Shown one piece after another: positions 33,001 through 39,000 of a stretch of 42,985 bases of DNA. Positions within the stretch are counted from its first letter, which is position 1. Every line of letters begins with the position of its first letter. This stretch comes from a virus (lineage: Duplodnaviria; Heunggongvirae; Uroviricota; Caudoviricetes): the IMG/VR virus record IMGVR_UViG_2671180458_000016, positions 1 through 42,985 of that record. One strand, 5' to 3'. The position numbers are program-made.

Positions 33001-36000
33001 AAGGCGAGCAGGGGGAGCGTGGACCACAGGGATTACAGGGGCTGAAAGGTGAAACCGGAGAACGTGGAGCACAGGGCGCACAGGGACCGGCAGGCCCGAC
33101 GGGGGCAACGGGGCCTGCTGGTCCTCGTGGTGAGACGGGGCCACAGGGTGCACAGGGGCCAGCCGGAGCAACAGGACCTGTTGGGCCACAAGGAGAGCGC
33201 GGTATTCAGGGGCCTGCCGGTCCTGCGGGCCCGCGAGGTGAAACCGGAGCCAGAGGTGAAAAAGGAGACCCCGGGGACCCCGGCGGCCCACCGGGACCAA
33301 AGGGTGATACCGGACCTGCTGGCCCTGCCGGTGAAAAAGGTGAACCCGGTGAGCGAGGGCCACAGGGATTACAGGGACCACCGGGTCCTGCCGGAGAGAG
33401 AGGTCCGGCAGGCGAACCGGGAGCGAAAGGTGAAACCGGAAAACCCGGACCTGCTGGTCCTCAGGGGCAGCCCGGTCCACAGGGACTTAAAGGTGACAGG
33501 GGCGAGCCAGGACCTACAGGCCCACAGGGACCGGCGGGAGAGCGGGGACCTCAGGGGCCTCGGGGGGTAGCTGGTCCTGTCGGCCCGGCAGGTGCAGCGG
33601 GCGCTAAAGGTGATGCAGGACCTGCAGGGCCTGCCGGTCCCCGAGGACCCGCCGGTGAACGGGGCCCTGCCGGGCCGAAAGGTGAGCGTGGTGAACCGGG
33701 ACCGATGGGGCCTCCGGGGCCAGCAGGCGACGCAGGAAACAGCACAGTAAAAGGCATTCGTCTGGGAAATGAGATGGTGTACCGTCCATATAGTGGCTAT
33801 AGCAACTTGAGCCTACGCTCAATGGATGGCTGTGTGCTTACGGGAATTGCGGGAACAAACATGCCAGACAAGAGCCGTATAGATGAAATCTACTACAGAC
33901 CCTTGCAAATGACTTTTGGTGATGGAAGCTGGCGCTCAGTCGGTATAGGGGAAGTGTGAGCTGTTGTTCTTTTCAGCGCAGGTAACTGGCAGCTCTGCAT
34001 ACTTGTTATATTGCGCATAAAAAACCGGGGAGCAGGGCGTTACTCCCCGGTAAACATACAGACCAGACAATGATACCACACTGTCAGTTATTATTATCAT
34101 GACATAAGTCAGCGCAGGGAATATTAGTGCATGCACATGTCTGGTTTCTTTGATCTCACAACGCTTTTTTTGTGAAAAGAAAAAAGATGAGGCACTGAAA
34201 TCACAGTTTTATTTAAATGAGTGGACGTTGATGATTATTAAGAGTTTTAAGCTATACACCCCTGAAAAATCTGACGTGCCGGGTGCGATGTACCTGAAAT
34301 CAGTAGACGGTAGGGACTGGTACGAAAGCCAGTCATTATTCGCGGCAGACACGCTGAAGCTGGTTTATGACAGTAACGGTATAATCACCAGCATAAGTAA
34401 GGATGTCTCTATGCTGTGGCCGGTAAACCAGAGTGTGGCAGAGGTTGCTGATACGGAAGAAAACCGCAAAGCTGACATCTCGGGGCGCTGGGGTTTTGAC
34501 GGGGAGAAAATCACGGACCTGCTGACCGCGGAGAAAGCGCGCGGGATGAAGGGCGATGAAATTAACGCCTGGCGTAATGAGATGGAAGCGGCGAACTACA
34601 CGTTTGAGCACAATGGGCGTAAATGGGACTACGGGAAGTCAACGCAGACGCGTCTTGAGCCGTCGGTGGCGGCAGCGAAAGCGGGGAAACTGCCGGAGGC
34701 GTTTTTCTGGACGGATGCGGAAAACAATGATGTGCCGGTGACAGCAGAAGAGCTTATAGCACTGAGTGAAGCGGCAGAGCAGGCGATGTTCACCAAAGGG
34801 ATGGAAATCCACGTCCGGCAGCGCACCATGAAGAAGGAGCTGGAAAAGCTGACCAGTGCGGATGAGATACTGGCATACAGGGTGGACTGGAAATAAAAAG
34901 AAGGGGAGCGGATGCACCCCTGATATCTGAGTAGCATGCTGTTTATAGTTATCATTCATTAAAAGAATATTACCGTATGGCACGGCAGCAGAACATGAAA
35001 TTTGTCTCAGAACTGCAAATCAGCATTACGGGTAGTCAGGCAGATAACACAACGGGATAAAAAAACAGCAAAATGCATTAATAAAAAATTTTTACAGGTT
35101 GGTTGCCGGGCGTTATGTGACGCATATCAAAAACAGAACTGTAACGGGAGATAACAAAATGATGGATTCTGGCGGGGAGTAACAGCGCAATGCGTTCCGG
35201 GATGCTGTTTCTGAGAATGTGGCTGAAAACGCCCATGCTATAGTAAGAAAAATCCTAATAGTTTTATATTAATTTTTACGGAACTATTCGGAATACCCTT
35301 ATGAAAGGCAACGAAGTGTCAGTATTTTTAATGTATTCTGACACGCGTTGCTCTGTTTGTATACAAATCATTTCATAGGGTATACCAGATGAGCAAAAAA
35401 TTCTCTAAGACAATTCTTTCTTCTGCTGTTGCCGGACTGATGCTGGTGAGTTCTGGGGCGCTGGCTTTAGATATCCCAGTTAAAGACAGTGATTATTTAA
35501 TTAGAATAAATGATTCTAACAATGAATTGGCATCTGTTATTGATACAAAAACAAATAAGGAAGTTTTAGGCGCTATAAACACTACACTAGGTAGTGTCAT
35601 GACATGGAATGAACAGGATGCTAAAAAAGTCGAAGAATTTATTAAAACATTGCCGCCAGAGCAACAACATGTTGGTCTCCAAATGGCAATGCAACAAATT
35701 TTGTTCCCAGTTGATTCTCCTAGTTTAAAGCTTGATAAGTTGAATTCAGGAACATTAACCAAGGCTGATATTGATGCTGTTGTATCCTTAAAAACGGATG
35801 TTTCAAAGGCTATTTCTATCGAAACAGCGCCAGCCTATGTTGCCGCTGTCCGTTCTGGCGGTAACTCAGATGCCGCTGTCGCAGCAGCTAAAGACGGTCC
35901 TGGTGTTCTGCAGGAATACAATCGCATTGTTACCAATATCGACCAACTGAATAAAGACACCACTTTTGCAATGGACGCTGACGGCAACATTACACTGGAT

Positions 36001-39000
36001 GAGACCGCCGGTACAGGTGAGCGCTATGGCGTGAAGGATGTTGTGGCTGAAGTTGTTGAGGATACCACCGTTCGTGTGGCAGAAGACGGTTCCCTGACCA
36101 CAGCCCGTAACACGCAGACAACCAAACGCGTAAATGAAGCGGTGGTTGACCTTGATAAATCTGTAAGAACTAACAGCCAGGACATTGCAACCAACAGAAA
36201 AGCGATTCAGTCAAACAGCCGCCAGCTGCAGGAGCACAATGCACGTCTGAATGACCATCAACGCCAGATTCGTGAAAACCACGAAGAGATGAAACGCGCA
36301 GCGGCACAGAGCGCAGCACTTGCCGGTCTGTTCCAGCCGTACAGTGTGGGCAAATTCAACGCCACGGCAGCCCTGGGTGGTTACAGTGACAAACAGGCCG
36401 TTGCTGTCGGTGTGGGCTACCGTTTCAATGAGCAGACCGCAGCGAAAGCGGGTATTGCAGCAAGCGACGGTGACGTTTCTTACAACGTGGGCGTTAACTT
36501 CGAGTTTTAATTGCTGACAGTGACATGAAGCATGACGGCAGGTGCGGGATTTTGGCCTGCCGTTTTTTTCATGTGTTCAGAGACAGTGAGGAGATGCGAT
36601 GAAGGTGATTCTGGCGACCCGCAACCGTTATCTGGAGTACGGCCTGCAACAGATGCTTGAGGGGTACAGTGTCATACTGGCCCGGGAATTTTTTATGCCG
36701 GAGAACAGGAAGCACACACCGGAGAATAATGAATCATGGGTGATTATCTGTGATGCGCTGCTTGGCAGGCTGATGCGCTGTATGTTTCAGGGACGCCGTT
36801 ATCTTCAGCTGGATGCGGAGGAGATGACGGGGCGTCTGGATACATACAGGAAAATCCGTAACGGTGACTGGGTGCAGAACACGTATGCGCGTCCTCTGAC
36901 GATGTCCGAGATGGTGGTGATGTTTGGTTATGTGTACCGTGAGTCAAAGCCGTGTCATCTTGCGCGTGAAATGGGGATAAATACGAAGACGGTGAACACC
37001 TTTCTGTATCTGGGGCTTGGTAAAAATGGCCTGAGGTACAGGAGTGTGAAGCACCTGGTGGGACTGGCATAGCCGTATTGTTATCCGGTACTGAAGAGCA
37101 ATCAGGTAAATTGTCATGAAACAGGCAAATCTGAAATACGTAAAGAAGCGCTACACAGCAGGAGCGATGTGTTTCATGCTTTTTGTGTGGCTGGGTGCAG
37201 TGGTGACGCTCTGTGCAGTGGCTGCCGTAATGATGCAATAAAGAAAGGGGAGCAACATGCTCCCCGACCAGAAGAAAGACGTTTGATAACAATTAGTGAG
37301 TTGTTACTTCTTGTCCAGAATATCATAGCAACACTCTGTTGCAGTGATTCCGATCGCGATTTTAGCGAATTCCACCATAAATCCCCTGATTTTTAATCCT
37401 GAAGCAGTCAAAGGAATTTCTATGCCTTATATCGATATCACCACGATGCGTGGGATGATGCCGCGCGTTGTGACATCCATGCTGCCCGATCATTCCGCTG
37501 TACTGGCGGAGGACTGCCATTTCCGGTTTGGTGTTATTACACCAGAACGTCAGATATCCGGGGTTGAGAAAACATTCACAATTAAGCCAAAAACAATTTT
37601 TCATTACCGTGATGATTTCTGGTTTGCGTGGCCGGATGTGGTGGATGTGATCCGCAGTCCGGTCGCTCAGGACTCCCACGGGCGTATTTACTACACTGAC
37701 GGGCGTTTTCCTAAAGTGACGGATGCGACCATTGCCACAAAAGGGGACGGGAATCACCCGACATCATCGTATCGTCTGGGGATCCCCGCGCCGACGACAG
37801 CACCTGTCTGTACTGTTCAGCAGGGCGGTGATGTTTCTGACGATAACCCGAATGATGACGAAACCCGGTTTTATACGGAAACCTTTGTCTCAGATTATGG
37901 TGAAGAAGGTCCGCCAGGTCCGGCGTCTCTGGAGGTAACACTCCGTACTCCGGGGACTGCGGTACAGCTGACGCTGTCTCCGGTGCCATTGCAGAATGCC
38001 AGTATTAAACGCCGCCGGATTTATCGCTCTGCATCAGGTGGAGGAGAAGCGGATTTTTTACTTGTGGCTGAACTGGATGCATCCGTGCTCAGTTACACGG
38101 ACAAAATACCGGGGAAAAACCTTGGACCTTCTCTGGCGACATGGGATTACCTGCCGCCGCCAGAGAATATGACAGGCCTTTGCCTGATGGCTAATGGTAT
38201 TGCCGCCGGGTTTGCCGGTAATGAAGTGATGTTTTCGGAAGCGTATCTGCCGTATGCATGGCCGGAAGTGAATCGTCACACGACGGCAGAAGATATTGTG
38301 GCTATCTGTCCGCTGGGAACGTCACTGGTGGTGGCGACAAAGGGGGAGCCCTATCTGTTCAGTGGGGTATCGCCTTCCACAATTTCTGGCTCCAGAATTC
38401 CTTCCATGCAGGCATGCCTGAGCCGAAGAAGTATGGTGGCGATGGAGGGATTCGTACTCTATGCTGGGACAAACGGTCTGGTATCTGTTGATGTAAACGG
38501 TAATACAGCACTGGCAACGGAAAAGATTATTTCACCTGAACAGTGGCAGAGTCAGTTTAACCCGGCGTCCATTGTGGCTTATTCCTGGCGTGGTGAGTAC
38601 ATTGCCTGTTACACGAAACCGGATGGTAAGCAGGATGTGTTTGTATTCAGTCCGGTGAACATGGATATCCGTTATCTCAGTACACCGTTTGACTGCGCAT
38701 GGGTTGATCTCGCGAAAGATATGATGCGCGTGGTGACAGGAGACAAAATGTCAGTGCTTGCCGGGAGCTCTCTGCCCTCCACGATAAGGTGGCATTCAAA
38801 AATTTTTTCATTACCTGAAAGAACCTCTTTTTCCTGTATCAGGGTGAAATCTCCGGCGCCTGAGCGGGTGGGGATCACCATTATGGCTGATGATGTTCCT
38901 GTGATTCATTTTGCGCCGGGTACGTTTAAGGGAAGTGTGGTGAGACTTCCGGCAGCAACCGGGCAAAACTGGCAGGTGATGGTATCCGGATTCGGGCAGG

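Follow-up and report, generated by a model that had tools for sequence, protein, structure and literature searches.

The 42,985-nucleotide viral sequence examined here (IMG/VR record IMGVR_UViG_2671180458_000016; the whole stretch is referred to below as the window) carries a block of three genes among the tail genes of a prophage. All are on the plus strand: a trimeric autotransporter adhesin (TAA) gene (open reading frame ORF1, 373 aa; 35389..36510), ORF157 (157 aa, a member of the ORF-156 family; 36599..37072), and a gene for a 41-aa single-pass membrane protein (37116..37241) that is homologous to the C-terminal core of the protein known as ORF-60. The block has a DUF4376 tail-fibre-assembly-like gene (tfa; 34150-34896) as its left neighbour and an L0124-like virion or tail gene (37344/37424-39047) as its right neighbour. 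The adhesin gene is preceded by a conserved regulatory or promoter region (35234..35388, plus strand), which was delimited by blastn colinearity with the P-EibC, P-EibD and P-EibE prophages at 35243-35458 and by the alignment of 18 upstream regions. An intrinsic-terminator-like hairpin (ACGGCAGG...CCTGCCGT, then seven T residues; 36533..36570, plus strand) lies between the adhesin gene and ORF157, and a GC-rich hairpin, GGGGAGCAACATGCTCCCC (…TAAAGAAAGGGGAGCAACATGCTCCCC; 37247..37265), directly follows the stop codon of the small ORF and, in 933W-type backbones, marks where the cassette ends on its right.

An earlier inspection of the same DNA made without database searches (the sequence-only reading) had placed these three reading frames between Tfa and the next tail gene, and an ORF check recovered exactly the same coordinates. 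The three ORFs are real genes under purifying selection, since each of the exact proteins is present on about 960-1000 public contigs and the ratios of non-synonymous to synonymous substitution (dN/dS) are low: 0.12 when ORF157 is compared with ORF-156E, and 0.06-0.15 when the small ORF's core is set against ORF-60A and ORF-60D. A strong Shine-Dalgarno sequence, GAGGAG, also lies 5 nt upstream of ORF157. The AT-rich upstream region ascribed to the adhesin gene is borne out by a GC content of 34-40% in that region and in the 5' part of the gene, as against about 50% nearby, and the small hydrophobic peptide proves to be a 41-aa product in which a single hydrophobic helix of 23 residues comes after a basic N-terminus.

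A known cassette in a variable slot

The block is not new, as its gene arrangement was deposited in GenBank around 2000. In the records for the ECOR-9 prophages P-EibA, P-EibC, P-EibD and P-EibE (AF151091, AF151674-AF151676), orf-191 (tfa-like), a stem-loop, eib, a second stem-loop and orf-156 follow one another, and orf-60 is annotated after orf-156 in the P-EibA, P-EibC and P-EibD records. The window has the same gene order, strand and position after a tail-fibre-assembly gene, and its 36533-36570 terminator is at the position of the stem_loop annotated between eib and orf-156. ORF157 shares 89% identity with ORF-156E and 70-71% with ORF-156A, C and D, the adhesin is close to EibE over its last ~105 residues, and the small ORF corresponds to the core of ORF-60. 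The window cassette is thus almost certainly an eib–orf156–orf60 cassette. At the nucleotide level, identity to the P-Eib loci is 86-93% in the C-terminal part of tfa, about 68% in the upstream region and signal peptide (35243-35458), and 75-83% at 36193-37253 (83% to EibE over 36202-37253), while blastn found no DNA similarity to these loci in the passenger (35459-36192). There are also differences in the genes themselves: the window adhesin has no YadA-head repeat, a 14-residue deletion takes out the EibD Asp387-Tyr388 motif for immunoglobulin G (IgG) Fc, and the small ORF encodes 41 rather than 60 residues and does not overlap the stop codon of the regulator gene.

Because P-EibA is a lambda-like siphovirus (with J, lom and stf) and the window prophage is 933W-like, the cassette evidently crosses tail types, always lying after a tail-fibre-assembly gene. 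The association of its parts is close: among 22 IMG/VR loci with an ORF-156 homologue more than 65% identical, a TAA ending in ...GVNFEF is directly upstream in 20, and the other two are cut at a contig end. The slot itself is variable. In the Shiga toxin 2 (Stx2) phage 86 and Shigella phage POCJ13, the cor moron occupies the same position between tfa-like and L0124-like genes and is then followed by the same small-ORF and hairpin sequence, although the cargo there is a superinfection exclusion lipoprotein and the frame of the small ORF is broken by 14- and 18-nt deletions. In TL-2011c and about 100 Stx2a phages, orf-156 and the small ORF survive only as fused remnants. The three genes have therefore been gained, exchanged and decayed as one unit, and with its own regulatory region and terminator, its atypical composition and its replacement or decay in relatives, the block is a moron, as had been proposed. 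We conclude that the window contains one self-contained prophage cargo cassette in a variable slot of an stx-less, 933W/Stx-like prophage.

The small ORF was also considered as a piece of phage backbone, given its 97% nucleotide identity in eib-less Stx phages. This was rejected because of the frameshifting deletions present there; its conservation at the protein level is seen only where the cassette is intact. The core KRYTxGAMCFMLFVWLGxVxxLxxxAAVxxQ is common to the window protein, ORF-60A and ORF-60D, while the DNA identity of this stretch to P-EibA and P-EibC is only about 74%, and the third cassette gene is accordingly predicted to encode a conserved one-pass membrane protein of 41-60 aa. 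In P-EibA and P-EibD the start of orf-60 overlaps the stop of orf-156 (TGATG), which indicates an operon, or translational coupling, of the regulator and the one-pass membrane peptide.

A second GC-rich hairpin, at 34905-34920 directly after the tfa stop codon (…TAAAAAGAAGGGGAGCGGATGCACCCC), resembles that at 37247-37265. The two flank the cassette and are terminator-like on the minus strand only; they might be recombination joints of the slot.

The adhesin subtype

The adhesin has a signal peptide (aa 1-26) that aligns with those of the Eib proteins, a coiled coil at aa 248-313 that is matched by the EibD 391-438 fragment (2xzr, E=1.5e-10) and is modelled as one helix by AlphaFold2 (AF2), and a C-terminal YadA anchor at aa 315-373 (PF03895, E=4.6e-16; YadA anchor structure 2lme, E=4.7e-18). 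YadA_anchor is its sole Pfam domain, the scan giving no match to PF05658 or PF05662 and no head or stalk repeats. Where a YadA-like head would be expected, the AF2 model, which is of a monomer only and has a predicted local distance difference test score (pLDDT) below 50 in the anchor region, gives a compact alpha/beta N-terminal domain (residues ~27-190, pLDDT 85-93) and two short beta inserts (192-247). A fold search of this model against the PDB returned EibD (2xqh) only, and in the stalk only, with no PDB fold match for the N-terminal domain. The description of the protein as an Eib/YadA-like trimeric autotransporter thus holds for the YadA anchor and the Eib-like last ~105 residues; the YadA head and the IgG-Fc motif are missing, and the suggested comparison with Eib proteins extends to the C-terminus and stops short of the passenger. 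On its domain content the adhesin is an Eib-related, head-less TAA, with the outer membrane as its predicted location.

Its passenger type comprises 114 clusters, nearly all E. coli by name, with PF03895 as the sole Pfam domain. Hypervariability of the first ~150 residues suggests that it is a surface antigen subject to diversifying selection. By analogy with the Eib and Cla proteins, the adhesin is likely to serve in adhesion, autoaggregation or serum resistance of the lysogen.

The residues of EibD critical for IgG Fc binding are printed as D378-Y388 by Kotaka et al. (PMC13534694); because of the printed pairing with EibG D391/A392 and the sequence of EibD itself, we read the intended residues as D387-Y388, within the motif RIDYAVG. 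This motif falls in the 14-residue, two-heptad gap of the window adhesin, and the same gap is found in 29 of 30 adhesin relatives, the exception being a mosaic protein (P0202) that carries RTDRIDAAVG, having re-acquired the module. From this alignment, the window adhesin most probably does not bind IgG Fc. A probably non-IgG-binding variant of the adhesin is what is new here relative to the known cassette, and the prediction matters wherever an 'Eib-like' annotation serves as a virulence marker. The mosaic protein P0202 carries an inserted Eib-type saddle together with the RTDRIDAAVG module (columns 314-365 of alignment A5), and the IgG-binding module is therefore exchanged as a cassette between TAA subtypes.

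The Cla chain-like adhesins and EibG are Eib-related TAAs of Escherichia coli that produces Shiga toxin (STEC) and has no locus of enterocyte effacement (LEE) (PMC13534694). The window adhesin resembles the Cla proteins in lacking the IgG-binding Asp, and its strain background, JNEC-KY174, is shared with that study. It differs from them as they are described there, since the Cla proteins are lollipop-shaped, with a head and no N-terminal domain, whereas the window adhesin has an N-terminal domain and no head. Moreover, the window adhesin is found in eight of 5426 complete genomes (at least 80% coverage), a distribution that does not fit claB.

ORF157, a candidate LuxR-type regulator

The sequence-only reading had seen a LuxR-type helix-turn-helix (HTH) in the 157-aa protein and had made this call depend on a hidden Markov model (HMM) search. 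Direct scans of ORF157 gave no Pfam GerE match at E<=10 and no NCBIfam match at E<=0.01, so that the assignment needed profiles and structure. A phmmer search of ORF157 against the PDB returned LuxR-type chains only, at the expected position, with E about 0.4, and a broader profile of the ORF-156 family found GerE (E=7.4e-4), then VraR and EvgA. Among 27 members of the family, five match Pfam GerE (PF00196; best E=1.3e-6) and nine match Sigma70_r4_2. The AF2 model of ORF157 (pLDDT 91.5, predicted template modelling score 0.87) comprises a truncated, putative pseudo-receiver at aa 1-90 and a LuxR/GerE-type four-helix HTH at aa 99-153; the top 40 Foldseek matches are all full-length NarL/FixJ-type regulators, with RcsB first, and the best structural matches are RcsB, NarL and GerE. 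While a direct HMM match is lacking, the family profile, the divergent members and the predicted fold overturn that negative, and ORF157 is very probably a LuxR-type transcription factor.

The N-terminal domain has four strands only and lacks beta5-alpha5 and the beta5 Lys; after beta1, T7-R8-N9 takes the place of the acidic pair, although D52, which closes beta3, is almost invariant. With the acidic pair, beta5 and the Lys absent, the domain is best read as a pseudo-receiver, predicted not to be phosphorylatable. A sub-threshold similarity of aa 3-97 (36599-36890) to the RcsC alpha-beta-loop domain (ABL, PF09456; E=0.057), a domain matched by two of the 27 family members (best E=0.012), probably reflects just the shared alpha/beta fold. 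The family is small, with 35 members among 1.84 billion representative proteins, a set in which no bridge to larger LuxR families was found; a word-index search gave 44 clusters, and every source name among them is E. coli.

RcsA, BglJ, GadE, DctR and MatA are RcsB partners and are H-NS-repressed (PMC3950696, PMC5651002), and every known small E. coli protein of the pseudo-receiver LuxR kind that PMC5651002 reviews acts together with RcsB. Like ORF157, these partners are small FixJ/NarL-type proteins in which an unphosphorylated, receiver-related N-terminal domain is joined to a LuxR HTH; they are often encoded beside H-NS-silenced surface-structure genes, and their targets share an RcsB half-site. 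ORF157 differs from them in its shorter, four-strand receiver-like domain, its tiny family and the absence of significant sequence similarity. A phage-borne, RcsB-linked regulator is plausible, and the idea has separate, indirect backing from the conserved RcsAB-box-like sites described below. The RcsA-like regulator looked for by sequence did not emerge, there being no significant similarity to RcsA, BglJ, GadE, DctR or MatA. There is an N-terminal resemblance to GadE and DctR (ILATRN against FLMTKD and LIITRD), which we treat only as a lead.

The sequence-only reading had also found it intriguing that a LuxR-type gene should sit next to rcsB. This adjacency carries no such meaning: rcsB is the neighbour of the attachment site, 35 kb from ORF157, and as a functional link it was rejected because prophages integrated elsewhere, and lambda-like phages, carry the cassette too. 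The identical cassette of strain 2012EL-2448 is in a prophage ~160 kb from rcsB, and the cassette or ORF-156 relatives are also found in lambda-like phages, plasmid-like contigs and chromosomal islands.

Upstream sites and control of the adhesin gene

The upstream region of the adhesin gene contains two 14-mers that resemble the RcsAB box, the consensus of which is TaAGaatatTCctA as quoted in PMC3950696. Site 1, TAAGAAAAATCCTA (35244..35257, plus strand), has two mismatches to this consensus and site 2, TAAGGGTATTCCGA (35288..35301, minus strand), has three, and both keep all six of the strongly conserved RcsAB positions. The sites are inverted, with centres 44 bp apart, and are at -145 and -101 from the adhesin ATG. 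In the 43-kb window as a whole there are three matches with three mismatches or fewer, as against 2.8 expected by chance, and two of the three are here. The same pair is present in P-EibC, P-EibD and P-EibE, at -142 to -146 and at -99 to -101 relative to the start codon, while P-EibA keeps one. One or both boxes occur in 18 of the 20 IMG/VR loci with a TAA upstream of an ORF-156 homologue, and one of the two box-less loci holds only 22 nt of upstream sequence. Similarity among the Eib-type loci starts about 10 nt upstream of box 1 (18 distinct upstream regions aligned), and across nine lineages whose upstream regions are 37-91% identical, the 12 strong consensus positions are 91% conserved, compared with 74-75% for the weak box positions, 72% for the spacer and 60% further upstream.

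The inverted repeat could instead act as an RNA stem-loop, with no protein-binding operator involved, and it is true that AF151674-6 carry a stem_loop annotation at the corresponding position (844-872) and that the arms are 75% complementary. However, the arms are AT-rich with no T-run after them, they differ at weak consensus positions without compensatory changes, their conservation tracks the RcsAB information pattern and not base pairing, and P-EibA-type loci keep one arm only, as a box. We consider the RNA explanation very improbable; the pattern of substitution fits a protein-binding site better than RNA pairing. The conserved RcsAB-type sites are thus a plausible predicted operator, and represent an addition to the known arrangement.

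In the circuit that we propose, the adhesin would be made in the lysogen from its own promoter downstream of the boxes, with most transcripts ending at the 36533-36570 terminator. This promoter is AT-rich and probably silenced by H-NS, and ORF157 would activate it through the two boxes; the likeliest partner of ORF157 would be host RcsB, by which the adhesin would join the Rcs envelope-stress regulon. Transcripts that run past the adhesin terminator would in turn supply ORF157 and the small ORF, a source of positive feedback, and both would also be made from Q-antiterminated late transcription of the phage. Taken whole, this explanation, namely the known cargo cassette with ORF157/RcsB-type control of the adhesin, is the one that we favour, at only a little short of an even chance. 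Its parts are to be held separately: that ORF157 controls the adhesin promoter is possible and is predicted tentatively from the conserved sites, and that it does so together with RcsB is doubtful.

Several observations weigh against this circuit. ORF157 itself has no Pfam or NCBIfam match, and the ORF-156 profile has an hhalign probability below 10% against RcsA, GadE, DctR and RcsB; BglJ and MatA gave only weak hmmsearch scores against it, as did YjjQ at the level of the HTH (the BglJ model in the NCBIfam library, NF008548, matched RcsB in the same scan). No sigma-70-like promoter was found for ORF157, which is preceded by a good terminator. Host RcsA-RcsB, or RcsB alone, could be what uses the boxes, or their conservation could come only from the shared ancestry of the loci, and one plasmid-like locus has a TAA and an ORF-156 gene but no box. 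Furthermore, ORF-156 homologues with neither TAA nor boxes are found beside hpaBC, upstream of kpsF, in PerC/EspG islands and beside nleA. Earlier work reportedly found IbrAB, and not ORF-156, to be an activator of eib genes.

LuxR/GerE domains commonly bind inverted repeats as homodimers, and the two sites form a 20-nt inverted pair. ORF157 might therefore be a stand-alone LuxR-type homodimer that acts without RcsB, with the inverted pair as its own operator or with other targets altogether; the lack of sequence orthology to any known RcsB partner and the truncated receiver-like domain, of four strands without beta5-alpha5, are in keeping with this. We nevertheless think such a homodimer unlikely, as neither 14-mer departs from the RcsAB consensus at any of the six strongly conserved positions, RcsB ranks first among the structural matches (though the shared family fold accounts for that), and the comparable small proteins of E. 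coli work with RcsB (PMC5651002).

A further alternative is that the boxes are ordinary host sites for RcsA-RcsB or RcsB, and that ORF157 regulates other cargo or host genes. The association of ORF-156 homologues with unrelated cargo (nleA, the kpsF region, PerC/EspG islands and hpaBC), where TAA and box are both missing, speaks for it, as does the terminator that parts the adhesin gene from ORF157. Yet a TAA and ORF-156 are adjacent in all 20 of the phage loci (>65% identity) with enough upstream sequence, two more being cut off, and both genes decay together in the Stx phages; we regard this alternative too as distinctly unlikely. Less probable again is that ORF157 and the 41-aa protein serve late functions of the phage, such as host takeover or superinfection exclusion, being expressed by read-through from the tail operon and having no part in lysogenic control of the adhesin. 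The genes are on the same strand as the late tail-gene cluster and inside it, neither ORF157 nor the small ORF has a detected promoter, and cor, an exclusion gene, fills the corresponding slot of phage 86 and POCJ13. Against this, homologues are found in non-phage chromosomal islands and plasmid-like contigs, and the fold of ORF157 is that of a transcription factor, so that a purely late role seems improbable.

The ORF-156 homologues outside the cassette are varied in their surroundings. In lambda-like prophages (IMG/VR loci L045-L055), a 180-aa homologue with 62% identity (3501-4043 in L050) directly follows a short ORF, presumed to be for tail-fibre assembly, behind the tail-fibre gene, and there is no TAA. 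In L050 it is arranged tail to tail with a 440-aa ORF (4525-5847), which we take from its sequence to be NleA/EspI-like. Chromosomal members without a TAA nearby are found in L020-L022 (4001-4516), L006-L009 (5001-5495) and L017-L019. Of such chromosomal members, one is ~450 bp upstream of a kpsF-E-D-like capsule export cluster (Pfam SIS/CBS and Poly_export), another comes by itself after hpaBC and is preceded by 1.1 kb of very AT-rich spacer, and one is in islands with PerC and EspG fragments. These settings suggest that the family consists of regulators attached to horizontally acquired surface or virulence genes.

A broader proposal is that the ORF-156 family represents mobile-element-borne auxiliary regulators of RcsB, analogous to RcsA, RmpA and TviA, which wire acquired surface and virulence cargo (Eib-type adhesins and possibly nleA/kps) into the host's Rcs phosphorelay for envelope stress through RcsAB-type boxes, with the co-translated ORF-60 membrane peptide tuning the signal. 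We put this forward as speculation that is more probably wrong than right by a wide measure, although if true it would explain the condition-dependent expression of Eib, which is high in static culture and low with agitation. In LEE-negative STEC, the Eib-type adhesins provide serum resistance and chain-like adherence, and some members also immunoglobulin binding. The control of their strongly condition-dependent expression is unexplained in the Eib papers accessible to our literature search, none of which names RcsB, the neighbouring regulator or another regulator of eib. Expression was driven from 168 bp of eibG upstream sequence in PMC13534694, a length that would span both boxes in the loci examined here, a set to which eibG does not belong. 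The fold assignment of ORF-156, together with the conserved RcsAB-type sites, offers a specific hypothesis on how the adhesin is switched; were the circuit correct, it would provide a phage-borne partner or input for the Rcs regulon and would tie a prophage cargo to the envelope-stress sensing of its host.

The prophage and its other genes

The left end of the window is 100% identical to strain CFIAFB20190167, and positions 34900-37400 are 100% identical to strain 2012EL-2448 and 99.9% identical to JNEC-KY174 (O128ab:H2); by these identities the window is STEC DNA. It begins with rcsB (1-651, minus strand; NF008098, E=4e-141), after which comes a tyrosine integrase gene (696-1985). The remainder belongs to a short-tailed, 933W/Stx-like prophage, which has a capsid of the N4-gp56 type, a portal, a tail fibre with collagen repeats and the DUF4376 tail-fibre-assembly-like gene. 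The interval from 17737 to the nanS-p-like esterase gene (18510-20447) contains no reading frame in the stxA size range (90 aa or more), and for this reason the prophage looks like an stx-negative phage of the Stx type.

At the junction of the early and late regions (14460-17737) there are a 707-aa methyltransferase-like ORF, with weak hsdM and MAD2 matches, and an adjoining 364-aa ORF. The tail-fibre gene (32163-33959) encodes ~300 residues of collagen-like Gly-X-Y repeats, with GC contents up to 68-71% and a strong purine skew; collagen-like repeats of such composition are typical of the collagen-like tail fibres of prophages. The tail-tip fibre gene (39044-40810) is an intact 588-aa ORF in the window, and its near-identical copy in 2012EL-2448 is annotated as a C-terminally truncated pseudogene.

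The window prophage has a second trimeric autotransporter gene (41504-42700, plus strand; 398 aa), the product of which has both YadA_head and YadA_anchor domains. It is preceded by a Hok/Gef-family ORF (41012-41152) and an upstream region of 30% GC, in which no RcsAB-like box was found; for the genes that come next, the annotation of a related genome gives unnamed hypotheticals. The gene is present in 20 of the 5426 complete genomes, including O128:H2 and O146:H21 STEC, and its product is possibly one of the Cla or Yal adhesins of PMC13534694.

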